A stretch of 64,000 bases of DNA, taken from assembly GCA_050633305.1 (NCBI GenBank), contig JBOEGF010000040.1:1-64000 (forward strand). The letters are read 5' to 3'. The notes under the pieces are model-generated. The model did no database searches. It was not told the origin of the DNA and worked only from the letters and a program-made list of their open reading frames with translations. The stretch comes from Nannocystales bacterium (GTDB lineage Bacteria > Myxococcota_A > Polyangia > Nannocystales > Nannocystaceae). A program made the position numbers and the translations under genes. This document shows positions 4,607 through 34,728 of this stretch, in pieces. The first letter of the stretch is position 1; each line of letters starts with the position of its first letter.

Positions 4607-6208
4607 TCACGGACGGCCTGCGGAGCCCCCCAGGTCGCCCAGCAACGCCTTGAGCGTCACGAAGACACGGTGTCGACGGTCGAGCTCGCAAAGGGTGAGG
4701 CCACGGCACTCGTAGCCGAGCGCATAACGAGCGTCGAGATCCAAGAACGGCAAGATCTTGAAGCTTGCGCCGACATTGGCGTAGTGGGTCCCGAACCGTG
4801 CTCCCTCCGCGCCCTGTTGCTCGTGGATGAGGTTGTACTGCATTCCGACGCCCAAGCGCTCGTGGGCGAGGATGTCCAATCCCGCGTTGGCCGTGATCGC
4901 TTGGTACTTCTCGTCGGAGAGCAACGCGGTGTCGTTCGGGTCGACGACGTCGTTGAGGACCCGCGAGCCGTTCGCAAATGGGCGAACGCGACCGTCCCAG
5001 AACTTCAGCATGAAGCCGCCGCGCAGGTTGTAGCCCTCGAGCTTGGCATCGGCGCGGGTATTCGTGTTGGTGTTCGCCTGGAACCATTGGCCGGAAAACT
5101 GGGCCGAAACGTACTTGTGGTCGTAGCGAAGCGAAGGCGAGACCAGGTACACGTGGAACGTCGGCGTGGGAAAGCCTCGAGCGTCCCGGCCAACCTCTGA
5201 CCACGGCACCTGATAGAAGCGGGAGAACGGCGGAAAGGTGCCGCCGATCATGACGGTACCTGTGGTCGAAGTGGGGTTGCCCGCGTTGGTGGTCAACCCA
5301 AGTCGCAACCCTTCCAGAGCCCCCTTTTCCGGACCGTAGCTGATGTGCAGCCCGTTGCCCCGGTTGAACCCGGAGTACAGCAGAGGATTTCGTGCAAAGT
5401 CATCGGTGAGCAGCAGGTTCCCCACCGCGTAGAACGAAACGAAGTCGAGGCTCGTGGGGTCCGTGATCCGCCCCGCGTCCACACGGAGACCTCTCCACTG
5501 CAAGCGCATGAGCTGGTTGCGAACCTGGATGGCCGCTTGGCCCTCCCATACGCTGGTTCCATAAGGCCCGGCGTTGAGTTCGAGCTCGCTGACAAGCGAG
5601 AAGACCTCACCGTAGTGGGCGCGTACGCCCAGACGGGACAACGCGACGGTCGTGAACCGATCCTCGCGACGGTCGGGGGACATCTCGGTGCCCGTGTTGT
5701 CGATGTGCTCGTAGTAGCCACCACCGACGACGGCGATGAACGGGTTGATGTGGAGCGTCTTGCCCTTGATATCCTTTGCAAACCCGACCCCGTCGGGGCG
5801 CTGAAGCTCACGCTGTTCGACGGTCAGGCTCTCATTGGCGGTCGGTGGCTCGAGCGTGGTGACCGGTGACGTGGGCTGCGGTGTCGTTACGACCGTGGTC
5901 GGCTCGGGCTGTGTTTCCGGCTTAGCCTCCGGTTCCGGCTTAGCCTCCGGCTCCGGCGTTGGTTCCGGCTCCGAATTAGCCTCTGGCTCCGGCGTTGGTT
6001 CCGGCTCCGGCGTTGGTTCCGGCTCTGGACTCGCGGCGTCCGGAGATGTCGACTCCTCGGTCGGGTCCGCGTTCTCGGGCACGGACGAGACCTCGGGCAA
6101 GCTCGGCTCAGGTTGCCGAGCTGCGTAGGCAGGAGTGGCGCACTGCAGAGCCGCAATGGCCCCAACAGTCACCCAGGGGCATGCACGAATCATGAGTCGA
6201 CGTCTCAT
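4607..6208 (-). CDS. Probable outer-membrane beta-barrel/porin with Pro-Glu repeat linker
   Basis: Signal peptide (AYA), PEPEPT repeats, then amphipathic beta strands rich in aromatics, Gly and Asn. Confidence 0.65.
   Translation of the reverse strand: MRRRLMIRACPWVTVGAIAALQCATPAYAARQPEPSLPEVSSVPENADPTEESTSPDAASPEPEPTPEPEPTPEPEANSEPEPTPEPEAKPEPEAKPETQPEPTTVVTTPQPTSPVTTLEPPTANESLTVEQRELQRPDGVGFAKDIKGKTLHINPFIAVVGGGYYEHIDNTGTEMSPDRREDRFTTVALSRLGVRAHYGEVFSLVSELELNAGPYGTSVWEGQAAIQVRNQLMRLQWRGLRVDAGRITDPTSLDFVSFYAVGNLLLTDDFARNPLLYSGFNRGNGLHISYGPEKGALEGLRLGLTTNAGNPTSTTGTVMIGGTFPPFSRFYQVPWSEVGRDARGFPTPTFHVYLVSPSLRYDHKYVSAQFSGQWFQANTNTNTRADAKLEGYNLRGGFMLKFWDGRVRPFANGSRVLNDVVDPNDTALLSDEKYQAITANAGLDILAHERLGVGMQYNLIHEQQGAEGARFGTHYANVGASFKILPFLDLDARYALGYECRGLTLCELDRRHRVFVTLKALLGDLGGSAGRP
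5905..6030. repeat. Coding 18-bp tandem repeat (EPEPTP/EPEAKP)
   Basis: Repeated ccggctccggcgttggtt / ccggcttagcctccgg units. Confidence 0.85.
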
Positions 6209-20290: not shown

Positions 20291-20914
20291 TTGCGGTGGT
20301 ACGCTCCGTGCGTGCCAGAGAGCGCAACCGAGCTCGAATTGTTGGCGCAGTGGTGCGACGGCTCCGACCGAGCCGGAGACGAGTTGCTCCGCAAGTCGTT
20401 CCCCGTCCTGTATCGGTTTTTCATCAACAAGGTCGGTGACGCGACCGACGACCTCGTGCAGCAGACGCTGATCGGCTGCGTACGACACCGCGACAAGATC
20501 TTGGATTCGGGCGCGTTCCGGATGTACTTGCTCAAGATCGCGCGCAGTCGCCTGTACGACTACCTCCGCGCGACGCGGCGCCGCGCAGGCCACATCGACG
20601 ACGATTTTTCGCATGTCTCGGTGGCCGAAGCGGGCACGGGCGGGACCACTCGATTCGGGAAGGCGCAGGCTGCGACGCGGGTGCGTGAAGCGCTGCAGCG
20701 GCTTCCTGTGGACTTGCAACTCGTCGTGGAGCTCCACTACTGGGAGGAGCACACGACCGCAGAAATCTCCGAGGCGCTCGAGCTCGCCCAGGGAACCGTC
20801 AAGAGCCGCTTGCGACGGGCCCGAGAGCAGCTCCAACGCGAACTCGGGGATGGCGCGGACGTCGACGCGCTGGTCGGACGCGCGATGCCCAAGGTGGAGT
20901 CGGGCGCTGCGTGA
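20291..20914 (+). CDS. ECF RNA polymerase sigma factor
   Basis: DLVQQTL (region 2); EISEALELAQGTVKSRLRRAR (region 4). Confidence 0.92.
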   Translation: MRWYAPCVPESATELELLAQWCDGSDRAGDELLRKSFPVLYRFFINKVGDATDDLVQQTLIGCVRHRDKILDSGAFRMYLLKIARSRLYDYLRATRRRAGHIDDDFSHVSVAEAGTGGTTRFGKAQAATRVREALQRLPVDLQLVVELHYWEEHTTAEISEALELAQGTVKSRLRRAREQLQRELGDGADVDALVGRAMPKVESGAA

Positions 20915-20949
20915 TCCGAATGACGCGGGCGGGCGTTTAGGCGAGTACG

Positions 20950-23871
20950 GTGTCTAGCTCCTCACCATCGGACGAAGAAACCGAAGACGGCTGCGACCCA
21001 GGGGCTGACGGGCTCGATGCCGCCGTGCGACTCGCGCGGATCCGCCAGCGTATGTTCGCTCGCCTGGAGCCGGCTCGGATCGCGCAGTACCACGTGATGC
21101 GGCGCATTGGCGGCGGTGCGATGGGGCTGGTGTTTGCCGCTTGGGATCCCTCCCTCGACCGGGCCGTCGCGATCAAAGTGCTCCGCGACTCGGACGGCGG
21201 GGATGGCGGGCAGTTGCGGATCGAAGCGCAGGCCCTCGCGCGGCTGGGCCATCCCAATGTGGTGACGGTGTTCGAGGTGGGCGACCACGACGGGCGGCTG
21301 TACCTCGCGATGGAATACGTCGAGGGGCAGACACTGCACGCGTGGATCTCCGAATGGAGGGCAGCCCGCCGCCGGGACTGGGCCGCGTTGCGCGAGGTGT
21401 TCGTTCAGATCGCAAAGGGTCTGGCAGCGGCACACTCGGCAGGTGTCGTGCACCGCGACGTCAAACCGGAGAACATCATGATCGACGCCGAGCAGCGCGT
21501 ACGGGTGATGGACTTCGGGCTGGCCCGTCATCGTCCGCCTGCACGTGATGATGCGGCAGCGCTGGATACGGCGGACTCCAACGGCGACGTCGCGTCCACG
21601 CTGACGCGCGTGTGCGGCACTCCGGCCTACATGGCGCCGGAGCAGCTCGAGGGGCGTCCGGCGACAGTGGCCGCAGACCAGTTCGCCTTGGGGGCGACGC
21701 TGTTCGAAGCTGTGTACGGCCGCAGGATTCGGTCGGGGCCGCTGGCGGTATTGGCAGCATCGGCGATGGATCCCATCGAGGTGCCCGCGTCGCGAGGCGT
21801 GCCGCGGGCGCTGCGGGGGATGCTGACGCGCCTGCTGGCAACCGAGTCCGAGCAGCGGTTCGGCTCAATGGACGAGGTCGTGGCCGAGCTGTCGCGGCAG
21901 AGTCGGCGCGGCGCGAACCGGTGGACCGGGGGAGCGATTGCGATGGTGCTCGGCGCGGGTGGGCTTGCCGCGGGATGGGCCATGGGCGCGCCCGAGGACC
22001 AGCGGTGCACGGGCGCAGGGGAGCAACTCGCTGGTGTTTGGGACGAGGCGACCGCGACCGAGGTTGGGCAGGCGATGCTGGCCGAGCCGACGGGTCTCGG
22101 CGCCTCGACATGGGCTTGGATCGGCCCCGAGCTCGATGCGTATCGGGATGCGTGGATCGCCGAGTATCAGGAGACCTGTCAGGCCACCCACGTGCGGCGC
22201 GAGCTTCCGCTGCCCGAGATGGAGCGGCGCGTGGCGTGTTTGTACGACCGCCGCCGTCACCTCGCCGTCGCGGTCGATCTTCTCAGGGGTGCGGGCCCGC
22301 GGACCCTTGCCCGCGCAGACGGCATTGTCGCTGCGCTGCCCAGCACCACCGCGTGTGCGGACCCGGACTACGCGGCGAGCGAGCGCTTTCCGGGGACCGA
22401 CGACGAGCCGGCGCAGCGGCGCGCGGAGGCGATTGTGGCTGCGCGCGCCCGCTTCATGATCTCGGAGACGACCGAAGCCCACGCGGAGGTCCAGGCCGCG
22501 CTCGAGGACGCGCGGGAGGCCGGCGACGGCGTGGCCGAGGCCCGGGCGCTCCTGTTGCTGGGGCGGATCACCGCCAACTTGCTGCGTTTCGACGAGGCAC
22601 GCACGCACCTGGTCGCCGCGTATGAGGGCGCGCGACGGCACGAACTTCCCGTCGTCGCCGCGGGTGCTGCCCTGACGCTTTCCAAGCTCACCACGCGCGC
22701 GCTGGGGCGCATCGAGGAGGGACGGGTTTGGCAGTCGCTCATCGCACTGGAGTGGCCAGCGACGGGCAATGTTCGGCGTACGATGCTGCGGGCGTTGGCC
22801 CGTGCGATGGTCGAGCGCACCGCCGGTGATTCGGAGGCTGCGTTGCGGGCCGCCACCGAGGCAGTGGCCCTCGCGTCGAAGTTAGGGCCGGAGCACCGGC
22901 TGGTGGTCGCTCAGGTGCGACGGGCCTTGGCCCGCCTCTACTTGAGCATGGGTCGGCTCGAGCCGGGTGCCGCTCTCGCGGAGCAGGCGATCACGGACCT
23001 GGAGGCGTTCGTGGGCGTCGGCCACCCGGCCACGGCGAGTGCCTTGGCCACGGTCGCGCTGGCTCGGCGACACCACGGAGATATGGAGGGGGCGGTGCGA
23101 GCGAGTCGGGCCGAGTTGGTGGCGACCGAGCGCGGGCTCGGAGAGGACCACAAGCCGCTCGTACCAGGGCTCGAAGCATTGGCGAGCGCGCTGGCCCAGA
23201 CTGGTGCGGTCGAGGAGGCGTTGGAAGCCTTGGACAAGGCTGACCGTCTGCTCGAAGACGGAGGCAGCCTTCTCACCCGGGCGCGAATCGTTTCGCGTCG
23301 CGGCATGATTCTCGCGGATCGGTCGCCCTCGGAGGCCGCCGATGCGCAGCGTCGTGCGTACGACTGGGCACGCGAGGCGATCGGTGACGACAAGCGCGAG
23401 ACGCTCCTGTTCCGGGTCTCGCTGGCCGTGGCGTTGCGTCGCGCGGGCAAGGAAGACGAAGCGGTCCCATTGCTACGAGGGGCCCTCGAACAGCTCGAAG
23501 GTGCGCTGGGCGACGACGAGCACGCCGACATCGCGGACATCCACGGCATTCTTGGCAGCGACGCGCTGCGGCGTGATGACTACGACGCGGCGGTCAAGCA
23601 CTTTGGGCGCGCTCTGGAGATCTGGGGCGACGAGGCGGGCAGTTCGTACGCCCGTGCGCCCCTGCACATCGGGGCGTGCTCTGCCGAGACGAAAGCCGGG
23701 CGCCCGGAGGCTGCACTTGCGCATTGCGAGGCCGCGCAGGTCTTGGTGGCACGGAGCCGAGGGATCGCTGACGGTACGCCCGAGCGGATGCACGAGGCGT
23801 TCGCACTGACGCTGGCTGCCCTGGGGAAGACGGCCGAGGCCGAGCGACATCGCCGTCTCGCGCAGCCGTGA
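20950..23871 (+). CDS. Ser/Thr protein kinase with TM segment and TPR repeats
   Basis: GGGAMGLV, VAIK, HRDVKPEN, DFG, GTPAYMAPE; paralogous architecture to 11643-14459. Confidence 0.95.
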   Translation: MSSSSPSDEETEDGCDPGADGLDAAVRLARIRQRMFARLEPARIAQYHVMRRIGGGAMGLVFAAWDPSLDRAVAIKVLRDSDGGDGGQLRIEAQALARLGHPNVVTVFEVGDHDGRLYLAMEYVEGQTLHAWISEWRAARRRDWAALREVFVQIAKGLAAAHSAGVVHRDVKPENIMIDAEQRVRVMDFGLARHRPPARDDAAALDTADSNGDVASTLTRVCGTPAYMAPEQLEGRPATVAADQFALGATLFEAVYGRRIRSGPLAVLAASAMDPIEVPASRGVPRALRGMLTRLLATESEQRFGSMDEVVAELSRQSRRGANRWTGGAIAMVLGAGGLAAGWAMGAPEDQRCTGAGEQLAGVWDEATATEVGQAMLAEPTGLGASTWAWIGPELDAYRDAWIAEYQETCQATHVRRELPLPEMERRVACLYDRRRHLAVAVDLLRGAGPRTLARADGIVAALPSTTACADPDYAASERFPGTDDEPAQRRAEAIVAARARFMISETTEAHAEVQAALEDAREAGDGVAEARALLLLGRITANLLRFDEARTHLVAAYEGARRHELPVVAAGAALTLSKLTTRALGRIEEGRVWQSLIALEWPATGNVRRTMLRALARAMVERTAGDSEAALRAATEAVALASKLGPEHRLVVAQVRRALARLYLSMGRLEPGAALAEQAITDLEAFVGVGHPATASALATVALARRHHGDMEGAVRASRAELVATERGLGEDHKPLVPGLEALASALAQTGAVEEALEALDKADRLLEDGGSLLTRARIVSRRGMILADRSPSEAADAQRRAYDWAREAIGDDKRETLLFRVSLAVALRRAGKEDEAVPLLRGALEQLEGALGDDEHADIADIHGILGSDALRRDDYDAAVKHFGRALEIWGDEAGSSYARAPLHIGACSAETKAGRPEAALAHCEAAQVLVARSRGIADGTPERMHEAFALTLAALGKTAEAERHRRLAQP

Positions 23872-23887
23872 GGACTTTGTGACGCCG

Positions 23888-23907
23888 CTCTAGCTCTAGA
23901 GCTAGAG
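23888..23907. repeat. Perfect 20-bp palindrome at the upstream end of the IS91/ISCR element
   Basis: CTCTAGCTCTAGAGCTAGAG is its own reverse complement. Confidence 0.85.
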
Positions 23908-23920
23908 GTCCTGGCCGACG

Positions 23921-25474
23921 ATGCGCAGGCCGGCCCACGCCGTGGGCCACGGGGCCAGCGGAGCGCCGTGCAACCTCCGGAAAATGCGGCGCTGCACGAG
24001 CGGCCCGGCGCGCGCATCAGCAGCGCCGTGCAGTGGCCAGTTGTCATGGGCAGCTGCGGTACGTTCAGCGGACACCACCCAGGGGAGCGACGCTCTCGCC
24101 GTCGTTCGCGAGCACTGGCCCGCCTTCCGGGAGCAGCTCGAGGAACGTGTGGGCTCGCTGCCAGGATTCGTGCGCAACGAGCTCGAAGCGTTCATCACCT
24201 GCGGAGACTTCAAGTACGGATTTCTGGTGGCTCAGTGCCGTCGTTGCGGGGACAGCTTGCGCGTTCCCTCCGCGTGCAAGAGCCGAGGCATCTGTCCCTA
24301 GTGCATGGGTCGGCGCATGGCCGAGACCGCGGCGCTGCTGGTTGAGCATCGCTTGCCCGAGGTCCCGTGGCGTCAGTGGGTGCTGAGCTTCGAGGGGCCG
24401 ATGGCGGTGCGGCTGGGCTACGACCGGGGGCTGCTCGGGCGGGTGTGTCAGCGGTTTGCGAAGCGGGTGATGCAGACGCTTCGGGGCCGGACCAAGTGCG
24501 CGCACGGGTTGCGTAGCAGCGGCAAGCTGCACCCCGGAGTGCTCATCGTGGTGCAGCGGTTCCGCAGTGACCTGCGCTTGTACGTCCATCTGCACGCCCT
24601 GGTCACCGACGGCTGCTTCGAGGCGCCGGCAAAGGCAGACGAGGCAGTGATGTTCAGGCCCGCCGCAAGCCTGTGCGAGCAGGACCTGCTGCGGACCCTG
24701 CAGCGCTTGCACGGCGAACTCGCCGAGCACCTCGAGGATGGTGACAGTGAGCCTGTGGGCGAGGCGCTCGCGGCCTGCGTCCAGCTCGCGCTGCCGGCGC
24801 GTACAGTGGGACCCTTGCCGTGCGAATCACGACCGGCTTCGCCGATGCTCGTGCGCGGCTTCGGGATGCAGCTGCACGCGGCCGTCACTGTAGACGGCCG
24901 AGACCGCAAGCGCCTGGAGCGAGTCTGCCGCTATCTCCTGAGGCCGCCCTTCGCCCTCGATGCCGTCCAGCGCACCGCCGACGGACAGGTCCGCGTGCAC
25001 TTCAAGAAACCCAACCGCTTCGGGGCGACCTATGCCCAGATGAGCCCGCACACTTTCCTGGCCCGGCTGCGTGCCCTCGTGCCCCCGCCGAGGGCGCACA
25101 CGGTTCTGTACTACGGCGTCCTGTCGGGTCACCACGCGCTGCGCTCGGCGGTGGTGCCTTGGGCTGAGGAACCTGCGCCCGAGCCCAAGCAGCTCGCGAT
25201 GTTTGTGCCTCGCGGGGCCATCGAGCTCCCGGGCACCACAACCTTGCTCGAGACTCAGCTGCGTGATGCTGCTCCGTCTCGGCTGTCGTGGATGACACTG
25301 CTGGCCCGCGTGTTTCGCATCGACATCTCCGTGTGCGCCCGCTGTAGCGGGCCCATGCGGGTCACTCGGGCCTTCACCACGCCCGAGGACATCGCGGCCG
25401 AGCTTCATGGTGCTCGGCCGCCGCCGCGTGGGCCTCTGCCCGGACAACTCGTACTGTTCTCGGCTCTGCCGTGA
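23921..25474 (+). mobile_element. IS91/ISCR-family rolling-circle transposase, interrupted by one in-frame TAG (24299-24301)
   Basis: Zn-binding CG..GF...C..C...CK.RG.CP*C, RQWVLS, HLHAL (HUH), LERVCRYLLRPP, YYGVL, C..C.GPM; ORFs 23921-24301 and 24305-25474 are in the same frame. Confidence 0.9.
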
Positions 25475-25699
25475 ACGTTCTGGGCTGTGCGCCACGATGC
25501 GCGCCGGTTCGCCCCGGGCTCGTCTCGGCGTGCCTGGATTTTGGCCTCCGTCGCTCCGCGCTGCGCTTCGGGCCCGCCTTTCGCCCACGATGCCTTCGCG
25601 TTCCCAGGCTCAGCCCCAATCCACACCCGGCCGCAGGCCCCCTGCGGAACGACCGCGCTCGCTGGCGGCCCGCCGTACTCCGCAGCCCCTGCTTTTCCC

Positions 25700-25746
25700 A
25701 CTTCATTTCGCTTAGACGCGCGCGCGGAGGCGAGACGAAATGAAGT
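25700..25746. repeat. 11-bp inverted repeat downstream of the transposase (candidate oriIS region)
   Basis: ACTTCATTTCG (25700-25710) ... CGAAATGAAGT (25736-25746); left arm recurs at 49191 and 50281. Confidence 0.7.
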
Positions 25747-26086
25747 CGGAGGACAGGGACGGCTCGGGTCGCGGGCTGGCGGCAGGGTTCGCAACGGTGT
25801 CGAGACACCCCAACTATGGCGCTGCCCGGGCTTCGTCCTCGCCGTGGCTAGACATCAGCTCGCGGACTTTTCGCTCTGAGTCAACGCCCATCGGATCATA
25901 TCCGGGATGGACGCAGCGACGCAGCAGCCCCCGCATCGCGGAGAACGGCACAAGCGGGTTCCACGAAGGCTAGGACGTCCGCCACCGCTGCACGGCGCTT
26001 GGCACAGCAGGGAAGCGGACAAGGTCCGGACGACCCCTCGGCACTCGAGGCGAGGCGTTTCGTCGCGGGAGACTCCCACTGATTAG

Positions 26087-27580
26087 TCAAGTATCGCTCG
26101 TGTCATCTACCTGGCGAACCGGCGGCAAGTCCGACGTGAGCCAAGCGCGGAGCGCGTCCGCAACCTGCTCAGCCTGAAAATATTTGGTGTGAGCAACTCC
26201 CAGCTGCGCGTCGAGTCGCTTCGCTCTTTCGCCGTGGATCCCGGGAAAGCCCGGACCGGCGGCCTCGAAGCAGCCTTGTGTGGGCACGACGAGGTCATTC
26301 TGTGAACCTGAGAAGACTCCCTCCATGATTCGGGTCTTTGCCCAATCCGCGAGCGCAGGCTGGGTCGGTCGAAAATCTGAAGCGATGGCGCACAGCTGAA
26401 CAGACTCGGGGACTTCCGTTTCGTTCATCCTTCGCAAGAAGTCACCTTGTGGGTCCATCGAAACCAAGCCGGGAAGCTTCACTGCAGCGCCGCTGGCAAC
26501 TTCCTTCACGATCTCGAGAATGGGCTCAAGGGCGTCCGTGAATCCGTTGTCCGGTAGCCAGGACAGCAGATTGATGAACACATCAAGAAGCGAGGACAGG
26601 TGATCGAAGTCTGCCAGACGTGTGCCGTGATGCGGGGTTCCGACAAACACAATCTGCTTTACGGCCGCGACTGGCGGGCTGTCGGGGAGTCCCCCCGCGA
26701 TGCCGCGGGCGACCAACCCTCCACGAGAATGGCAGACGATATCAAGAACTGCACCGTCGACGAGTCGCTCCCGCAGCCACTCCACGTTCTGCGCTGGATC
26801 ATGGCTTAGTGTTGGGTGGTCGAAAGCGAATACCTTGCCCTCGTACCTCTCGTGAAGCTCGACGAGCAGTTCGTGAGGGAGGTCGCCGAATGCGCTGTCT
26901 GCACGGCTGAAGGTCCCGTGGACGAACAGCAGGGCACGTTTGTTCTGGAGCGACGCAAGGAAATGCTCGTCGAGCTCTGCTCCCGTGTTGCGGTAGTCGT
27001 CCGGTCGGAAAGTCCGAAGTCGGTAGCCGCGTTTGTGGTCTTCCCAAGCCGCAACAGCCTTTAGGCCGACCATGCCGGCTACTCGCTTCAACAGCTTCGC
27101 GGCGAAGACTCGAATGACCTTCCGCCCGAGGGCACCTGCCCATCCTCGACTTCCGTCTGACGTTGCGCCTGGCGGGAGAGCGACGGATCCGCTCATGCGG
27201 TAGGTGTTTCGACCTCCCTGTGCCTTTGGGAAGCACCAGCGTATGATCCCCCCCTCGTCGGTAACGATTGCGAACTGGGCCCATTCCGCAGGCGCCGGCT
27301 CGACCTCCAATTCGATTGTGGGCTCGTCTGTCTGTCCTGATCTGTCGCCGCCGATTCCGCCCCCGGGGACCTCGCGAGACTGATCGATCTCGACGTGGTG
27401 AATTGCTTCGACGTCAAGGCCTCGAAGAGCTTCTTCGAGTCGTCGTTGGACCGGGTCGGCAGCTCGCAGACTTTCGGCCGCTGCCATTACTCTCTCTGCC
27501 CGACCCATGAGGCCACGGGTCCGCAAGCTAACTCCGTCTCCCAGGTCGACCGGGCTCCCATTCGGATCAAGATATTTCAT
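26087..27580 (-). CDS. Alpha/beta hydrolase (PGAP1/lipase-like) with N-terminal extension
   Basis: LLFVHGTFS, FDHPTLS, CHSRGG nucleophile, GTPHHGT, NDLVVP, HTKYF; no signal peptide. Confidence 0.88.
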   Translation of the reverse strand: MKYLDPNGSPVDLGDGVSLRTRGLMGRAERVMAAAESLRAADPVQRRLEEALRGLDVEAIHHVEIDQSREVPGGGIGGDRSGQTDEPTIELEVEPAPAEWAQFAIVTDEGGIIRWCFPKAQGGRNTYRMSGSVALPPGATSDGSRGWAGALGRKVIRVFAAKLLKRVAGMVGLKAVAAWEDHKRGYRLRTFRPDDYRNTGAELDEHFLASLQNKRALLFVHGTFSRADSAFGDLPHELLVELHERYEGKVFAFDHPTLSHDPAQNVEWLRERLVDGAVLDIVCHSRGGLVARGIAGGLPDSPPVAAVKQIVFVGTPHHGTRLADFDHLSSLLDVFINLLSWLPDNGFTDALEPILEIVKEVASGAAVKLPGLVSMDPQGDFLRRMNETEVPESVQLCAIASDFRPTQPALADWAKTRIMEGVFSGSQNDLVVPTQGCFEAAGPGFPGIHGERAKRLDAQLGVAHTKYFQAEQVADALRAWLTSDLPPVRQVDDTSDT

Positions 27581-27587
27581 TTCGTTC

Positions 27588-29651
27588 CTACTTGAATCTC
27601 ACATTCGGGTCGCCGAACAGCTGATAGGCGAGGTGAGTCGTGTGGGGTTGGTCGCTGAAAGCACGCCGAACGTTGCGAAGTGCGGCGCCGGCTGTGAGCC
27701 CTTTCGTGACCCCAGCATAAAAGTGAAGAGCCACCTCCTTCGCAATGCCGTCGTTGACCTTCCAAAGAGGAGCGACGACGGCAGACGCTCCGGCGACAAG
27801 CATTGCGCCTGGGAGTCCCGTGAACAGAGATAGCGTCGGCTCCGAGACTCCGGCTTCGCATGCGTTCAGAAAAACGAACGGTTTCGAGGTGAACCTAAGG
27901 CCTCGGACCGACAGGGGGCGTAGCGTTTCCTTGTCACCGAGTATCAAGCCGCCCTCGCCCCCGCCGTACTGACCGTGGAGCGCGAAGTGGACGACCTCCG
28001 GGACAGACTGGCCGTTGAACGCTTTGACGACGTTGGCGTAGTTTGATTGCTGCATCGACGCTTGGTAGAGGGTCGCGAGCGCGTCGGCTTCTTCCTGTGC
28101 TTCCGGAAGAGCGCGCCATCTCGCTCCTTCGTACTTGCCCAAGAACACCGTCATCGGCGTCTGACGGCACTCAGACGGGGGGGGCGTCGTCGGCCGTTGC
28201 CTTGCGAGAGTCCACCGGCCGACTTCATATTGGGCGCCGAGGAACGGCGGCGCGTTCGGGTCGCGAAGCTCATCGACATCGATCAGTGCGAGTTCCCAAG
28301 GAACGGCGGGCTCGTCTGTGAGGATCTGGACCGATGGCACCCTGTCGGCCCGGGGTGGCAGCGCTCCCAGGATCTTCCACAACAAGACTGGAGCGACGTC
28401 TCGGATATGGTCGCCGACCCCGCGCATTGTGTCTCGCGTCTCCTCGGGCGTGAGGTCTGGGACGAGTCGCAGGAGGTCAAGCACGAACTTGCGGGGAGGG
28501 GCGGGTAATAGCTCCACCAAAGGTGCCTCAGGCACGAGCTCTCGCACAGTCTGGTGCGGGCTACGGAAGTTCCATTGTAGCGCGTCGCCCTGCGATACAA
28601 TCTCGATCGTCAGATCGGGCGCCCCACTAGGCTCAGCCAAGGTAACCCGACCCGGGGACTCTTCGTCCGATTGGGGAGCCTTGTGATCTCCCCCGACCCC
28701 AATGAACCGCATAGCAAATCCGATGGTCCGGCCGCCATGCGCGTATGTCACAGCGATCTTCCGAATTCCGCTAGCCTCGGCGGTGAGGTGCAGAACTTTC
28801 CGCGGAAAGTCCGCACCCTCTGGAGTGACTTCGAGTTCTTGAGTCCACGACTCGCCAGCCCTCAGCGAGAAACCGTGGGCGGAAACGGTTGCCGTGAGCT
28901 TGAGCGTGTCGTTGAACAGCCGCAGCGGCGAGCCAGCAACACCTGGCGTCGGAAACGCTGACAGGCCAAGCGTGAGGACGAACTCTTCTCCAATCTGCGT
29001 TTCATCTGGTGCGTCGAGCAGCCCGTAGGCGGTTCGGTGCCCAGAGTTCTGACTGCTCTTTGGAGTGCTGTTCGGTGCGGGCCGTGCTGAATCAACGACG
29101 TAATAGGCAGGTTCGCCTCCCCTGAGGAGCAGACCTTTGAAGTCTGGAGGGAGGGGGTCAACATCTATCTCTGCCGATAGGAGCGCACGGCTTTCACGCA
29201 GGTCGACAGCGGAGAGAAGCGATTGGTCTGGGGTGATCGTGCGAGCAACTTCATCGGCTGGCGCAAGGTCTATGTCTGGCGGGCTCGTGGTGCGGTTGCC
29301 GTCGCTCGAACCTTGTTGGCCCTTGCCGTTCTTCCGTCTCCTTCGCCCCTTCTTCGCGAGAAGCCTCTTCTCAAGGTTCTTTCTGTCGAATGCGAACCAC
29401 AACCAGCCCAACTCATTGTGCCATCTCTGAACCAGGACTAGTGAGTTTTTCGGGTGGTGTTTGAGGGCCTTGAGTACGTCACTGACGCTCCAGTCCGCGT
29501 CGATTACTGCGGCGGGGCGTCGCCAGCGGGCCTGCGGTGTCTGTTCTTGAGTCGCGCGCATTTCCTGTGTCGCAAGTTGCTGGCCGCGCGGCGAGTGTCC
29601 GCGCTTGCGCCTGTGGCGGCCGGATGGAGTCGCCCGGGAAAGATCGAACAC
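27588..29651 (-). CDS. CHAT (caspase-like) domain protein
   Basis: VPWEL, LP.AQEEA, VHFALHG (His), FLNACEAG (Cys), APLWKVND, AYQLFGDP. Confidence 0.92.
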   Translation of the reverse strand: MFDLSRATPSGRHRRKRGHSPRGQQLATQEMRATQEQTPQARWRRPAAVIDADWSVSDVLKALKHHPKNSLVLVQRWHNELGWLWFAFDRKNLEKRLLAKKGRRRRKNGKGQQGSSDGNRTTSPPDIDLAPADEVARTITPDQSLLSAVDLRESRALLSAEIDVDPLPPDFKGLLLRGGEPAYYVVDSARPAPNSTPKSSQNSGHRTAYGLLDAPDETQIGEEFVLTLGLSAFPTPGVAGSPLRLFNDTLKLTATVSAHGFSLRAGESWTQELEVTPEGADFPRKVLHLTAEASGIRKIAVTYAHGGRTIGFAMRFIGVGGDHKAPQSDEESPGRVTLAEPSGAPDLTIEIVSQGDALQWNFRSPHQTVRELVPEAPLVELLPAPPRKFVLDLLRLVPDLTPEETRDTMRGVGDHIRDVAPVLLWKILGALPPRADRVPSVQILTDEPAVPWELALIDVDELRDPNAPPFLGAQYEVGRWTLARQRPTTPPPSECRQTPMTVFLGKYEGARWRALPEAQEEADALATLYQASMQQSNYANVVKAFNGQSVPEVVHFALHGQYGGGEGGLILGDKETLRPLSVRGLRFTSKPFVFLNACEAGVSEPTLSLFTGLPGAMLVAGASAVVAPLWKVNDGIAKEVALHFYAGVTKGLTAGAALRNVRRAFSDQPHTTHLAYQLFGDPNVRFK

Positions 29652-29769
29652 GGTCTGAGTCTGTTGAGGCGCCGAGTCTGCCGCGGTGAGACCATGTTGA
29701 AGCCACTATCTGAGCTATTTTCGTTGTAGTCGTGAAACCGCGTAGGAAGCAAGGAAAGAAGACGCTTCG

Positions 29770-30200
29770 GGTCGGAAAGGTTCCGCCAGCTACACGTAGT
29801 TACGCTTGAAGGCCTTCACCAACGCCTCGGCCACACCGTTCGATTCGCTCGAACAGGCGGGCGTGTTGCGCGGCTTCAGGTTGCACTCCGAAGGCGAACA
29901 GGCGCGAGTTATTCGCGACGTCCGGCGGCCCGTCGTCGGTGTGCCACTTGATCGGACTGGTGGCCTTCGGTCCGCCAGAGGATGCCTCGACGCTTAGCGC
30001 GAGCACGTCGCGGAAATCTGATCCGTCGAGATGGCTGTTTGCTCCGACCCCGGCCAATGGCGTCGCGGTCGCGGCAGTCGAGCCTGAAGGCCGTGCACCT
30101 TCTCGCTGTTCCAACAAACGAACCTCGAACAGATCGCAGCATGTCGCGGGCAAGCGTGATGATCGTGCCTCGATGGCCCCTCTCCGGCTCGGGCCGAACT
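29770..30200 (-). pseudogene. IS3-family (IS2-like) DDE transposase remnant
   Basis: Frameshifted pieces LDCRDRDAI, PIKWHTDDG, ESNGVAEALVKAFKRNYV resemble the IS2 OrfB integrase core. Confidence 0.75.
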
Positions 30201-30876
30201 TCGGAAGCTGCACGCCAGAAAGGAGGCGGTGTCCCGTTCAAGCGGGGCCTACATCAGTTAGGCTCATTTTAGTCTCCCTCATATCGGCAAAACGAGTCCG
30301 TCTCGTGGCGACGTGCCGAGCCACGACACCGTGCTGGCAGGCGTGTCGCCGATCTAGCAGCGTCGCTGGATTCTCCCGCCGAAAGAGTGACCGGCGGGCC
30401 GGTTCTGAGGGGCCTTCGCACAAAGACTACGTGATTCGCAACGTGATCTGCAGCGAGCCTTGACCCCTCAGCCACTGCTACTGCGCAGAAAAACTCGTTC
30501 GCTCGCGGCTTCGCGCCCGGCGTCGGTCTCCAGCTTTTCGTTCTTGTGCGCTCCCTGCGCTTCACGAACGGTGGAGAGCTGGCCGAAGTCGGCAACGGTT
30601 CGGGCCCACCCTTTCCCTTCTCGGGACTCAAGAGGTCGCTCGCGAAGACGAATTCGCAGTTGACCATCCGATATGACCGCCTACGCTGTGCGATAGTGTC
30701 CTACTCCCGCCGAAATACTTTTTTGCAAAAAACGGTAGCGCAAAGAACAAAAAAGGACTCGAAACCTCTTTCGAGCAGCTGCATACTCAGCTAGTCAGGC
30801 ACCGAGCTACTTATTTGGTTCAGCCGAACTTTTCCGCCAGCCTGACCACCTCAGGCTTACAGAGACTAAGACCAAG

Positions 30877-31158
30877 ATGCCCACGGACGACATGGAGATG
30901 GGGCCCGGAACCCTCGAAGTCCGCCTGTTCGGGACCTCGAACCAGCTCCGAAGGATTGTCGCCTTCGTCGAGGAAAGAGGGGGCGCCTCAGACGTGCGCC
31001 TTCGGCGAGACAAGACTGGCTTTGTCGGCCGAGTGTACACGATAAGGCGCGGGCGCGAACTCGCGCGCCTACTGCGGCGCGTATTCGCGACGGACGTGCG
31101 TCGGGCCACCGTAAAGCCTCCTGCAATGCCCTCGTCGTTGCGCAGCGCGACGGGCTAG
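30877..31158 (+). CDS. Small hypothetical protein
   Basis: 93-aa ORF behind an AT-rich promoter-like stretch; no recognised motif. Confidence 0.4.
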   Translation: MPTDDMEMGPGTLEVRLFGTSNQLRRIVAFVEERGGASDVRLRRDKTGFVGRVYTIRRGRELARLLRRVFATDVRRATVKPPAMPSSLRSATG

Positions 31159-31186
31159 TCAAGGCCTTGAATACTGGCCAGTGACC

Positions 31187-32428
31187 TCACGGCAATTGGT
31201 CCAGTTCGTGGATGATCTTTTGGAGGTCCGGTCTGTTCCCAATTTCGGAGTGGCACGACCAACCGTGGTGCTGGAGGAGCTGCCGAACTTCGCGGGGCTT
31301 CAAGCGCGGCTTTCCCTGGTGGTCCCGATAGCCCTGCACAACGGCGACGATCCCAGCCACCACAGCGGCTGCGGCCGACGTGCCTTCGAAACTGTCGACT
31401 AGACCGGAGTTTGGGTCGGGATCGAGCGCGCCGGGGCTGATCCCAGACGTTGCATCGGCGGCGAGGAGCCCCTCCGGCGCGTTGCAGTTGATTACCCCGG
31501 ATCCGTAGTTCGTAGTCGCACCCCGTTGGCCATTCGCGGCACTCGCTGCAACGAGGATCGCACCGGAGTTGTGCCTACGGCTCGCCGCGAATGGGTTCTT
31601 CCAAGAGTGGTCGAAATCGGGGTCCGGCTGGTCCAGCGCTGAGCTTGTCAAGTCTTGCCCTCCATTCCCAGCCGCTTCGACAACGACTACGCCCCGCTGA
31701 GTAGCATCCAGGATCGCCTCAAACTCCTCTTGGAACCACTCCACCGGCACGAACTCACCCGACACAGGGTGTTGAATCTGAGTTTCTACTAGCAGCACGG
31801 ATCCCTCATCAAGGTCGTCGGCAGCTTCTTGAATTGCCTCAGATACGCCCGCGTAGGAGTCCACCGACACCCCTTTGAAGATGGCGGCAGGCGCCACACC
31901 AACGAGCGAGGTGTCCGCGGCCACGATGCTCGCAACCGCCGTTCCGTGGGCGACCAAGTCCTCATCGGCGGACTGTGTGGTACCGACGATGTCGCGCCCG
32001 TTCGTGTTTCGGAGCACTTGGTGGGAGAAGTTCCATCCCCACTCAACGTCGTTGACCTGTACTTTTCCTCGGCCCGCCCCACTTGCGAGGCCGGTAGCCC
32101 AATCATGGTTGATCGGCTTCGTTCCGCCCGTGCAAACCCAGCAACCGGCTGGTTCCGCCGGGGGTTTCGCATACGCTGCGCGGACACCAGGGTGGCTGCG
32201 GAGGAACTGAGCCAGTTCTGACGCCGGGGTGTTCCCCTCCAGCCGAATGACCGCGATACGGTTGGTTTGATCGATCTCGACTCTACCGCTGCTGGGTTTA
32301 CGAAGGACGCGGCATCGGCTTCCCGGAGGAAGCGCAGAGAGCCAACCCGGTCCAGCCCCGGAAGCCCAGATCACACCTTCCTTTGGCACAGCCTCCACGG
32401 CGAGGACGAGCACAACTTCTTCGTGCAC
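31187..32428 (-). CDS. S8 (subtilisin-like) serine peptidase
   Basis: DVEWG (Asp), HGTAVA (His), EAAGNG (oxyanion), FEGTSAAAA (Ser); no evident signal peptide. Confidence 0.92.
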   Translation of the reverse strand: MHEEVVLVLAVEAVPKEGVIWASGAGPGWLSALPPGSRCRVLRKPSSGRVEIDQTNRIAVIRLEGNTPASELAQFLRSHPGVRAAYAKPPAEPAGCWVCTGGTKPINHDWATGLASGAGRGKVQVNDVEWGWNFSHQVLRNTNGRDIVGTTQSADEDLVAHGTAVASIVAADTSLVGVAPAAIFKGVSVDSYAGVSEAIQEAADDLDEGSVLLVETQIQHPVSGEFVPVEWFQEEFEAILDATQRGVVVVEAAGNGGQDLTSSALDQPDPDFDHSWKNPFAASRRHNSGAILVAASAANGQRGATTNYGSGVINCNAPEGLLAADATSGISPGALDPDPNSGLVDSFEGTSAAAAVVAGIVAVVQGYRDHQGKPRLKPREVRQLLQHHGWSCHSEIGNRPDLQKIIHELDQLP

Positions 32429-32545: not shown

Positions 32546-32686
32546 GACCCGGCTCCCAGACCCAGGGTTGTTGGCCCGGCGAGTCGGCCGATCGGCGCGC
32601 AGGGAGGTGACGATCGACGCGAGGGGATGAGAAAGCCGCGCCTCGGGGCAGGCAGTCGCGGACGGGCGGGGCATTTCGTGAGCCAC
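32546..32686. repeat. ~140-bp repeat, copy 1, containing the REP-like GACCCAGGGTTGTT
   Basis: Aligns with 34590-34728 (ggcccggcgagtcggccgatcggcgcgcaggg.ggtgacgatcgacgcgaggg...). Confidence 0.9.
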
Positions 32687-32754
32687 AGCCGACGAGAAAC
32701 CAGCACCCCCGGACGAGCACTGGGCTCGCCTGCTTCGCCTGAAACCGCGAGGGT

Positions 32755-33714
32755 TCAGCTTTTTGCGACGTCAACGGCCACGCCGAAGCGCCGGACCATC
32801 AGGTACGTACCGCGCGGAAAGACCGCATCGCGCTTGCCGCTCTCAAAGAGCAAGCGTGCGTGCTCATGCTCCTCCAGGAAGGCCGCGTTGCGCTGGAGGG
32901 CTTCGATGCGGGCCCACTTGTTCTTGCCGGCGACGGTCGGCCGAATGCCGCGCCGCGGAAGGCGGTTGGTGGGCGAGGAGTCGGTCGGCTGTCGACGAAC
33001 ACGCCTCATGCCCATGAAGGACCCTCCGCTCTTTCGAAGGGCGTCCGCCATCGCGTGGCTTCGCTCGCGAGCCTTGTCGCGAAGTTTCTCGCGAGCTTCG
33101 GTATCGGTGAGGGCTGGGTAGAGCGCCTCGGGTCGCACAAGCGTGAGGACCTCTTCGTCGAGGGTGTTGTCGCTGAAGCCGTCGAAGAAGCCCTCGGGCC
33201 GCGGAATCGTCTTCGACTGGCCATGGTCCATGCTCCAGCTGCACACGCCATCCCAGTACTCGGGAAGCTTGACGAGGCCAGCCTCGACGACGTTGCACAG
33301 GGTGTACAGGCACTCGTCTTCGATGGCGTCGCCATCGACGAGGCTGACGGCGTTGTAGGAGCCTGGCGCGAAGAAGTTCTCCCACCGGCCGAGGTTGGCG
33401 TTCCCGCCTCGGGCGACGAACTGGTTGAGCTCGCGAAAGAAGACCGGGCGCTGCCCACGAACGTCGGCGAAGACCACGTGATAGTGGTTGCTGAGGACCT
33501 GAAACTCGTGGATCCGGACGCCCGAGATGCGGGCAGCTCGAGCGAGGCAGTAGAGAAAGAGTTGGTCGGTGGGGGCGCTGGGCCGCAGAAAGAAGCGGCC
33601 CTCGCTGCACTTGCGCGTCCCCATGACGACCTCTCCGACCTCGATGAACCGCGGCCGAGTCATGAGGACGGCCTCCACGGAAATCCTGCCGAGCGCGCGC
33701 AGGTGCTGCTGCAC
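32755..33714 (-). mobile_element. RAYT-like / IS200-family HUH (Y1) transposase
   Basis: SNHYH (HUH), RWENFF, Y..CNVVEAGLV, FPRGTY. Confidence 0.85.
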
Positions 33715-33894
33715 GCGCGGTCAAGGCAGGAAAGCTTCGAGGAACGCACCGGTCATCAGACACAGCAAGGAGTCAACCATCTTCGCGAGCGGTAGAAACC
33801 GCATGTTCCGGGCGGGCTGGAAGACCCTTGCGCAACGGTGCCCGCCCCTGGGCCATACGGTTGGCCATGGGGCCACCGCCGGTACCCCCGCCGA

Positions 33895-33908
33895 AACAAC
33901 CCTGGGTC
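33895..33908. repeat. Inverted copy of the 14-bp REP-like motif
   Basis: AACAACCCTGGGTC is the reverse complement of GACCCAGGGTTGTT at 32559-32572 and 34572-34585. Confidence 0.85.
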
Positions 33909-33969
33909 GGGGTCTTTCAGCCACGTGCGGCGGCGTGGCAGGACTGATAGGCCGGCATGGGGCCCAGGC

Positions 33970-34548: not shown

Positions 34549-34728
34549 GACCCGGCTCCCCGCGGCTCCCGGACCCAGGGTTGTTGACCGACCCGGCTTC
34601 CCCACCCAGGGTTGTGGCCCGGCGAGTCGGCCGATCGGCGCGCAGGGGGGTGACGATCGACGCGAGGGATGAGAAAGCCGCGGCTTGGGGCAGGCAATCG
34701 CCGACTGGCGGTGCGTTCCTTGAGTCAC
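34549..34728. repeat. ~140-bp repeat, copy 2, with two REP-like motifs
   Basis: GACCCAGGGTTGTT at 34572 and ACCCAGGGTTGT at 34604, then homology to 32561-32686. Confidence 0.9.

Follow-up and report, generated by a model that had tools for sequence, protein, structure and literature searches.

The 64-kb window analyzed here (positions 1 to 64,000 of contig JBOEGF010000040.1, assembly GCA_050633305.1, from a Nannocystales bacterium) carries two adjacent minus-strand genes that encode a CHAT protease (27588..29561) and a 497-amino-acid (aa) alpha/beta-hydrolase (26087..27580). The hydrolase has a prodomain in front of a lipase-like DUF7379 core and is a predicted zymogen. Our sequence comparisons make it very probable that the CHAT protease cuts the prodomain after conserved arginines, leading to proteolytic processing and activation of the hydrolase. 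We inferred activation because the pair was conserved, fusions of the two proteins existed, the arginine loop motifs were kept, the protease had acidic residues of the type that bind arginine in an S1 pocket, and cleavage at R/G has a published precedent. The complete chain, in which the activated enzyme would have a cell death or antiphage role, is slightly favored, mainly by analogy. The initial annotation had proposed a zymogen lipase that is activated by CHAT for abortive infection; the zymogen and CHAT parts of that proposal are well supported by inference, and the abortive-infection part is an analogy.

Conservation of the protease-hydrolase pair

The hydrolase matched Pfam family DUF7379 (PF24096) with an expect (E) value of 1.5e-51 and 175.5 bits against a cut-off of 33; NCBIfam returned no match for the hydrolase or the CHAT protein. 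Family members were about 490 aa long and aligned over 96% of their length, leader included. We obtained 702 matches at E <= 1e-10 among 7,996 scored candidates and 1,860 clusters at 50% identity at E values up to 1e-30, and the named members came from Acidobacteria, Actinobacteria, Chloroflexi, Bacillota, Gemmatimonadetes, and Proteobacteria.

The AlphaFold2 model of the hydrolase, a beta-sheet prodomain followed by an alpha/beta core, had a predicted local distance difference test (pLDDT) score of 89.7 and a predicted template modeling (pTM) score of 0.91. Its top fold match was the phospholipase PlaB (Z 18.8, root mean square deviation [rmsd] 3.2, 233 residues aligned), and it also matched a Streptomyces lipase (Z 18.1, rmsd 3.0, 214 aligned), BlEst2 (Z 18.0, rmsd 4.4, 238 aligned), and Tle4 (Z 15.6, rmsd 3.4, 236 aligned). 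The catalytic triad, S285 (in the motif CHSRGG), D429, and H464 (26189..26728, minus strand), was invariant in all 119 rows of the family alignment. It was also found in 142, 146, and 146, respectively, of 148 divergent representatives, which were produced by clustering the family at 50% identity. The initial annotation called the hydrolase cytoplasmic; judged by hydropathy alone, no hydrophobic N-terminus was present (best 19-residue Kyte-Doolittle mean of 0.23 in the first 25 windows).

Conservation of the pair had been chosen beforehand as a test of the proposal, and the pair was conserved. From 565 confirmed matches in metagenomes, we surveyed the loci of the best 80. A caspase-clan protease was located upstream of the hydrolase or fused to it in 69 of the 71 informative loci, or in 63 of 65 when six near-identical copies were removed; the remaining 9 loci contained too little upstream DNA to be informative. 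A homologous CHAT protein was encoded directly upstream in 52 of the 80 loci. In 48 of the 80, the CHAT homologue ended -23 to +124 bp from the hydrolase start, and 4 more showed the C-terminal tail. The hydrolase was fused behind a C14 caspase module in 14 loci (11 by Pfam and 3 near-copies by profile), a C14 open reading frame (ORF) abutted it in 1 locus, and 2 loci cut by contig ends matched the C14-fused module. In the two loci where the hydrolase had no upstream caspase-clan protease (L002 and L066), 2.6 kb and 0.57 kb of upstream DNA were available.

Single-chain proteins pointed in the same direction. Three chains joined the hydrolase to the same immunoglobulin (Ig)-CHAT module (P0161, P0198, and P0185, with E values of 3e-163, 9e-144, and 2e-75, respectively), chains with a C-terminal C14 domain were also found among the representatives, and relatives of the host carried DUF7362-DUF7379-DUF7363-CHAT chains. 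A tree of 71 hydrolases (quick mode, Shimodaira-Hasegawa-like approximate likelihood ratio test [SH-aLRT] support only, midpoint root, and L033 dropped) accounted for the four partner arrangements, each with a caspase-clan protease, by 7 changes. The partner and the order of the genes changed repeatedly; the caspase-clan identity of the partner and the arginine loops stayed. The distribution was patchy: the hydrolase was found in 0 of 6 congeneric genomes, in 4 of 72 genomes of the order (E < 1e-100), and in 2 of 301 genomes of the phylum (E <= 1e-90). The copy in the window had a long branch (1.14) in the hydrolase tree. A GTDB scan with the single protein as the query produced one weak, unrelated locus.

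Some relatives had additional parts. Seven of the 11 distant DUF7362-DUF7379-DUF7363(-CHAT) fusions, a type found in the host's family, had an Amidase_2 domain before the prodomain (L089, L090, and L094-L098), which could be a cell wall sensor or a second effector. In three genomes of one related genus (L083-L085), a hydrolase of the close type formed the end of open frames of 1,255-1,397 aa, and the 500 residues preceding it had no Pfam match; the N-terminal portions extended beyond the loci. Two tandem hydrolase domains were present in P0253, P0277, and P0261; the first two of these ran on into CHAT, and P0253 also had TPR-S. Genes for a glycosyltransferase and a long trypsin-like protein were located directly upstream of the pair on the same strand in L032 (1064-7580), with similar genes in L048, and a trypsin together with an EAD1 protein was encoded directly upstream of the pair on the same strand in L055 (157-1730).

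Arginine sites in the prodomain

The initial annotation described a leader of about 190 aa with flexible arginine loops. The leader itself was confirmed (residues 1 to about 190; 27011..27580, minus strand), but it is unlikely to be a loose peptide, as the AlphaFold2 model predicted a folded beta-sheet domain whose strands had pLDDT values of about 95. In homologues, this domain was related to DUF7362, which matched 11 of 70 members at E values up to 1 (best 2.1e-7) and was also present in the distant fusions.

Four arginines were conserved in the family prodomain, in loops that otherwise varied, each followed by G, S, or A, and T was the commonest residue before three of them. The copy in the window retained three of these sites, all on the minus strand. 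R39 (SLR/AA; 27464..27466), predicted cut site 1, was R in 111 of 119 rows, with A, S, or G at P1' in 106. R80 (GDR/SG; 27341..27343), predicted cut site 2, was R in 108 rows, with S at P1' in 85. R145 (GSR/GW; 27146..27148), the predicted decisive cut site, was R in all 119 rows, with G at P1' in 106 and S in 13, and was R in 141 of the 148 divergent representatives. Family site 3, near residue 121, was R in 116 of 119 rows and was deleted in this copy. Model confidence was low at the sites: block 31-40 had low pLDDT values, residues 79-81 had values under 50, and the R145 loop was also low. The three retained motifs were among four listed in the initial annotation. The fourth, RTRGL, was rejected as a cut site, since the family has a Pro there (P22 is nearly invariant) and the motif is a local change in this copy.

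The arginines stood out from their surroundings. Flank conservation was 0.43-0.59 at the four R-[G/S/A] motifs versus 0.68-0.91 at conserved arginines in the core. A further prodomain arginine, in an RTY strand position, was conserved in 101 of 119 rows with a flank value of 0.53 and had no small residue after it. The tripeptide TR[GSA] occurred 252 times in 22,614 prodomain residues versus 8 times in 35,796 core residues. Among the 148 representatives, R[GSA] was present in the four loops in 114 of 137, 114 of 142, 131 of 147, and 140 of 148 cases, and the corresponding expectations from within-loop shuffling were 70, 76, 89, and 70; three control loops in the core showed no excess of R[GSA] over shuffles. 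Three or four sites were present in 121 of the 135 representatives with a full leader. Only 61 of the 148 representatives had R80 in its exact alignment column, because the loop slides. By eye, the arginine motifs also persisted in the C14-fused forms and in the distant fusions, where the surrounding sequence had changed.

A cut at R145 would create a new N-terminus at residues 146-163 (27092..27145, minus strand), a cationic amphipathic segment that is a predicted membrane anchor and that corresponds to the basic amphipathic helix of the initial annotation. The family pattern after R145 was G-L-x-G-A-x-G-K-K-x-L-K-V-L, which is cationic and moderately amphipathic. The helical moment of the 14-mer was 0.58 in this copy and averaged 0.47 in the family, compared with a background mean of 0.26 and a 95th percentile of 0.49. 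The charge here was +2.4, and the two fragments preceding R145 had net charges of -4 and -4. In the model of the intact protein, basic residues 154-162 formed a strand of the prodomain sheet.

These features could also be read another way, with the lipase as an accessory: the cut pieces may damage the membrane without catalysis if the segment or the prodomain strands oligomerize in the manner of EACC1 or Pepco. A small residue after Arg and the G-L-x-G-A-x-G-K-K pattern that follows are strongly conserved, four cuts exceed what is needed to free one enzyme, and EACC1 is likewise latent through strand pairing with its own N-terminal fragment, as described in the main text of PMC12642450. We consider this explanation very improbable. 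The catalytic triad is invariant, and therefore catalysis is under selection; in addition, the EACC1, Pepco/Trypco, and CATASP Pfam profiles matched 0 of 70 members at E values up to 1.

The CHAT protease, its predicted specificity, and precedents

The CHAT protein matched Pfam CHAT (PF12770) with an E value of 2.7e-24 and 86.6 bits against a cut-off of 24. CHAT residue numbers used here count from the GTG at 29651 (ORF 27588-29651, 687 aa), which was the start in the initial annotation. However, that codon is inside a decayed transposase remnant, and the closest homologue (P0124, 46% identical over 94%) begins where the ATG at 29561 falls; the true start is therefore probably ATG 29561, which yields a 657-aa protein.

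The model of the CHAT protein (pLDDT 78.4, pTM 0.72) contained three parts, all encoded on the minus strand. The first was a TCAD7-like N-terminal module (residues about 45-177; 29121..29519), a candidate sensor that matched TCAD7 at an E value of 6e-5; in CHAT homologues, TCAD7 matches reached E values down to 1e-20. The second was an Ig-like beta-sandwich (residues 206-321; 28689..29036) that resembled macroglobulin and complement domains (C3, CD109, and alpha-2-macroglobulin; Z 9-10 over about 100 residues, rmsd 2.4-3.3) and that sits where the distant fusions have DUF7363. The third was a CHAT/separase-like protease domain (27588..28619), and the top fold match was separase (5fc2; Z 24.8, rmsd 3.5, 299 aligned). 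Csx29 (7y9x) matched with a Z of 23.0 (rmsd 3.9, 310 aligned), and DdvA and SAVED-CHAT matched as well. The His/Cys dyad that the initial annotation called intact, H559/C598, was invariant in 34 of 34 rows.

Besides the dyad, the catalytic half of the protease had just two invariant acids, E521 and D634 (34 of 34 rows). In the model, E521 followed beta-1 and D634 was at the start of the helix that follows the W630 strand. The text of PMC4626109 describes separase residues that hold the P1 arginine according to modeling, namely, a Glu that follows beta-1 and an Asp where helix alpha-4 begins (Glu917 and Asp1082 in Caenorhabditis elegans separase). By secondary structure, E521 and D634 are predicted to occupy the same anchor positions and to form an Arg-binding S1 pocket.

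The N-terminal modules of the CHAT proteins varied. Among 26 N-termini scanned, including that of the copy in the window, 14 had TCAD7, 3 had HEAT, 1 had BON, 1 had a kinase, 1 had a spurious VPS13 match, and 6 had none. TCAD7 might be a CBS-derived module, a lead that comes from sequence profiles: against a profile of CBS pairs taken from the genome, hhalign gave a weak match (probability 17-23%, E about 1e-3; 23% and 9e-4 over 95 columns), control sets of 30 and 60 shuffles fell below it (the 60 shuffles reached at most 0.7%), and one CHAT homologue had a weak Pfam CBS match (E 0.007). A search of PDB sequences gave no CBS match for TCAD7. Self-cleavage of CHAT in its linker was also considered and was unsupported, as the motif occurred in 16 of 30 rows versus 13.2 expected by shuffling.

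The protease could have the opposite effect on its partner. A toxic hydrolase might be inactivated or degraded by CHAT acting as a protease antitoxin, or the uncut hydrolase might be a securin-like inhibitor of CHAT. Several exposed arginine loops could be used as degradation or bait sites, and the Ig domain on CHAT is alpha-2-macroglobulin-like. On the other hand, all of the sites are N-terminal to the catalytic core, which the cuts would leave whole; the residues after R145 are conserved as expected of a new N-terminus; and all four modules in PMC12642450 are activated by cleavage. We regard this reversal as very improbable, the least probable of the alternatives that we weighed.

The mechanism that we propose is one of activation. 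At rest, the hydrolase would be held latent by its prodomain. A signal may reach the exchangeable N-terminal module of CHAT (TCAD7 here; HEAT, BON, or kinase-like modules elsewhere); should TCAD7 derive from CBS, this signal might be an adenine nucleotide. CHAT would then cut at R39, R80, and R145, with each P1 arginine bound by E521 and D634; among these steps, cleavage is the most strongly indicated and sensing the least. The product would be a 38.5-kDa enzyme that begins at G146-WAGALGRKVIRVF; this new N-terminus would change into an amphipathic helix and tether the enzyme to the inner membrane. By analogy, lipid hydrolysis would kill or arrest the cell, probably through damage to its own membrane, in a suicide response to phage or other invaders.

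The nearest precedent is the caspase-hydrolase module of Kaur (2020) and Evans (2025), rather than type III-E CRISPR or SAVED-CHAT. According to the main text of Evans 2025 (PMC12642450), LcCaspase of Lysobacter capsici cuts LcHydrolase twice at R/G, the fragments kill Escherichia coli, and the substrate of LcHydrolase is not identified; the word CHAT is absent from that main text. The systems share an adjacent caspase-clan protease and an alpha/beta-hydrolase that is closest to lipases and has conserved R/G motifs, and in both the proteases are joined to varied N-terminal or sensor modules. Our pair thus has the hydrolase linkage to a caspase-superfamily protease and the R/G motifs of such modules, but it does not have their architecture, because LcHydrolase lacks a prodomain and is cut inside its core. 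Compared by eye, LcHydrolase is 296 aa long (a hydrolase of about 300 aa), begins at the HG strand (H8-G9), and has both of its cuts (R73/R117) between that strand and the nucleophile. In the 497-aa hydrolase studied here, the HG strand (H221) is preceded by a 190-aa prodomain, which contains all of the three or four sites. In addition, the protease is of the CHAT/separase type with Ig and TCAD7 modules rather than a caspase like LcCaspase, and toxicity was shown for LcHydrolase and is a prediction here.

In the VMAP systems, caspase domains always have an alpha/beta-hydrolase neighbor, as stated in the text of Kaur 2020 (PMC7159879). These VMAP/MoxR-vWA ternary systems share with our pair the caspase-superfamily domain with an alpha/beta-hydrolase gene, and the TCAD7 ("ternary complex associated domain") on CHAT recalls them. 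They differ in that no MoxR, vWA, VMAP, or GAP1 gene was found beside the pair or among the scanned neighbors of related loci; the pair is a stand-alone two-gene unit flanked by transposases, a subtilase, a kinase-TPR gene, and an ECF (extracytoplasmic function) sigma factor. The DUF7362-DUF7379-DUF7363-CHAT fusions share the hydrolase family, the Arg-motif prodomain, and the Ig-like domain before CHAT (and TCAD7 in L087), but they are single chains with the hydrolase first, whereas here there are two genes with CHAT first. Csx29/Craspase (type III-E), SAVED-CHAT (type III-B), DdvA, and separase share the CHAT fold and the His-Cys dyad (Z 18-25), and in each the protease is expected to be off until a signal arrives. 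Unlike Csx29 and SAVED-CHAT, our CHAT protein had no TPR or SAVED by Pfam or PADLOC, the window contained no Cas genes or CRISPR array, in agreement with the initial annotation, and the predicted substrate is a hydrolase. The predicted Arg specificity is like that of separase and unlike that of Csx29 (Met or Leu).

The logic of a protease-activated hydrolase has been published (Kaur 2020; Evans 2025), so the surprise is limited; the prodomain architecture and the CHAT partner differ. Full-text literature searches, which covered sources other than subscription journals, found no mention of DUF7379, DUF7363, or TCAD7 and no description of the CHAT-hydrolase pair, and the available portions of PMC8195603, 10.1101/2023.06.23.546230, PMC11506125, and PMC13069673 do not describe the pair.

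For a widespread family known only by DUF names, the analysis names a candidate substrate, places the predicted cut sites exactly, and predicts a specificity for cleavage after Arg. To our knowledge, few substrates are known for stand-alone bacterial CHAT proteases. If the proposal is true, the pair would add another, structurally different way of licensing a lipase effector by proteolysis, with a removable multisite prodomain and a membrane anchor at the new N-terminus instead of the internal excision in LcHydrolase. CHAT and C14 caspases would be interchangeable on one effector. In its most specific form, the proposal describes a cross-phylum group of phospholipase zymogens with a beta-sheet prodomain lock, up to four Arg cuts by interchangeable CHAT or C14 proteases, a last cut that switches a buried strand to an amphipathic membrane anchor, and gating of CHAT by a degenerate CBS module (TCAD7) in response to an adenine nucleotide. 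We offer this form tentatively and doubt that every part of it will hold. If true, such a death pathway of CHAT/C14-activated lipases would be distinct from the published caspase-hydrolase one, and DUF7362, DUF7379, DUF7363, and TCAD7 would acquire functions together.

Possible defense role and mobile setting of the pair

The patchy spread, the insertion sequence (IS) flanks, and the exchangeable N-terminal modules were counted in favor of defense. Some related loci also had conflict-type neighbors, namely, nSTAND1 (L057), EAD1 plus trypsin (L055), an OLD/AriA-like ATPase (L042), and a methylase plus PD-Lambda-5 (L010). The neighbor evidence was modest, and the defense role is suggested mainly by analogy. 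A further locus with conflict-type neighbors, on a megaplasmid of the culturable host Ruegeria pomeroyi (L101, 7608-14412), is a candidate defense operon: the gene for a hydrolase-CHAT fusion precedes one for a SIR2-like/ABC-ATPase fusion and an HNH-like gene, with IS5 alongside.

Several points weigh against the complete chain. The substrate cannot be read from a lipase fold. The S1 assignment is based on position rather than on a docked model, and CHAT specificity varies, as craspases cut after Met or Leu according to the text of PMC11506125. The segment after R145 is moderately amphipathic when 14-mers are compared (about the 93rd percentile) and unremarkable for 11- and 18-mers. A PADLOC check, which was suggested in the initial annotation, gave no model match for either protein (0 matches at E values up to 0.1 with PADLOC 2.0.0 of 2023, a library that predates the 2025 work). 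Among neighboring ORFs of at least 200 aa (126 of 143 were scanned, the 17 longest being left out), PADLOC matched 9 of 126 at 1e-10, in 6 of 18 loci and with no control set for comparison; several of the 9 were generic kinases or ATPases. Many loci were among ordinary genes (LysM-SLT, PagP, sulfatase, and antiporter), no relative was found in viral contigs, and plasmids gave only 9 matches, which were partial and distant.

Some of these points, such as the sparse defense-gene neighbors, would fit a nonlethal outcome. Under stress or in development, the same cleavage might switch on a lipase or esterase whose task is membrane remodeling or the production of a lipid signal; CHAT and kinase signaling is abundant in these organisms. 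Consistent with this idea, BON, kinase-like, and HEAT domains were among the N-terminal modules, a peptidoglycan amidase-type domain was present in 7 of 11 distant fusions, the C14-fused forms adjoined kinase-TPR genes, and the genome contained 7 CHAT matches. However, the very patchy, IS-flanked spread and the exchange of N-terminal modules are more in keeping with conflict systems than with housekeeping signaling, and the one tested caspase-hydrolase pair kills cells. We view nonlethal signaling as unlikely, although it is the most credible of the alternatives.

The pair has a coupled layout. Both genes are on the minus strand, with the hydrolase downstream of CHAT and a gap of 7 bp, as the initial annotation stated; the junction reads TAG-GAACGAA-ATG, and an AGGA that resembles a ribosome-binding site overlaps the CHAT stop. 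Other statements of the initial annotation about the setting also agreed with our results. Codon usage was atypical, as the codon adaptation index of both genes was in the 5th-6th percentile among 4,622 mechanically chosen long ORFs of the genome, and the G+C content was 61% versus about 65-66% genome-wide. A tblastn search of the 11-Mb genome found no close paralogue of either gene. The pair is inside a 6.8-kb stretch bounded by two multicopy mobile elements, and in six congeneric genomes, the matches listed included only these flanking elements. The left element (23905..25725, plus strand) is IS91/ISCR-like, has a transposase at 24305-25474, and is multicopy in the genus. The right element (32550..33915, minus strand) has 18-bp inverted ends; its 318-aa ORF (32755-33714) had no Pfam match and a weak match to REP tyrosine transposases (E 0.03). 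More copies of its end motif were present near 34563-34643.

Between CHAT and the right element is a decayed transposase remnant (29618..30169, minus strand), which we take to be IS3-type from its motifs. It contains frameshifts and stops and shares 71% identity with a longer ORF on contig C51 that encodes an integrase-type transposase. The copy in the window may not be expressed, a further point against the complete chain, because family site 3 was lost, the branch is long, and 57 bp separate the end of the remnant from the probable start. The family could act as proposed while this copy is silent cargo whose promoter was separated from it by the IS insertion, and a weak test for this GC-rich genome found no sigma-70-type promoter in 25700-31300. 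We judge silent cargo to be improbable, as both frames remain open, all catalytic residues and three sites are kept, and the coupled junction is undamaged, in contrast to the decay of the adjoining IS remnant.

A subtilase (S8) gene (31187..32428, minus strand; Pfam S8 E 8e-18) shares the codon-atypical island with the pair. Its Asp, His, and Ser motifs are apparently intact, and it had a weak PADLOC subtilase match (E 1.3e-8). It was rejected as a third component, as phmmer found no match in the 80 related loci, and clustering of those loci revealed no other conserved third gene. Rfam returned no match. Directly before the IS91-like element, at 20291-23871 (plus strand), are genes for an ECF sigma factor and then a Ser/Thr kinase-TPR protein. 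Farther away, an 18-bp tandem repeat at 5898-6041 probably encodes a Pro/Glu-rich linker.

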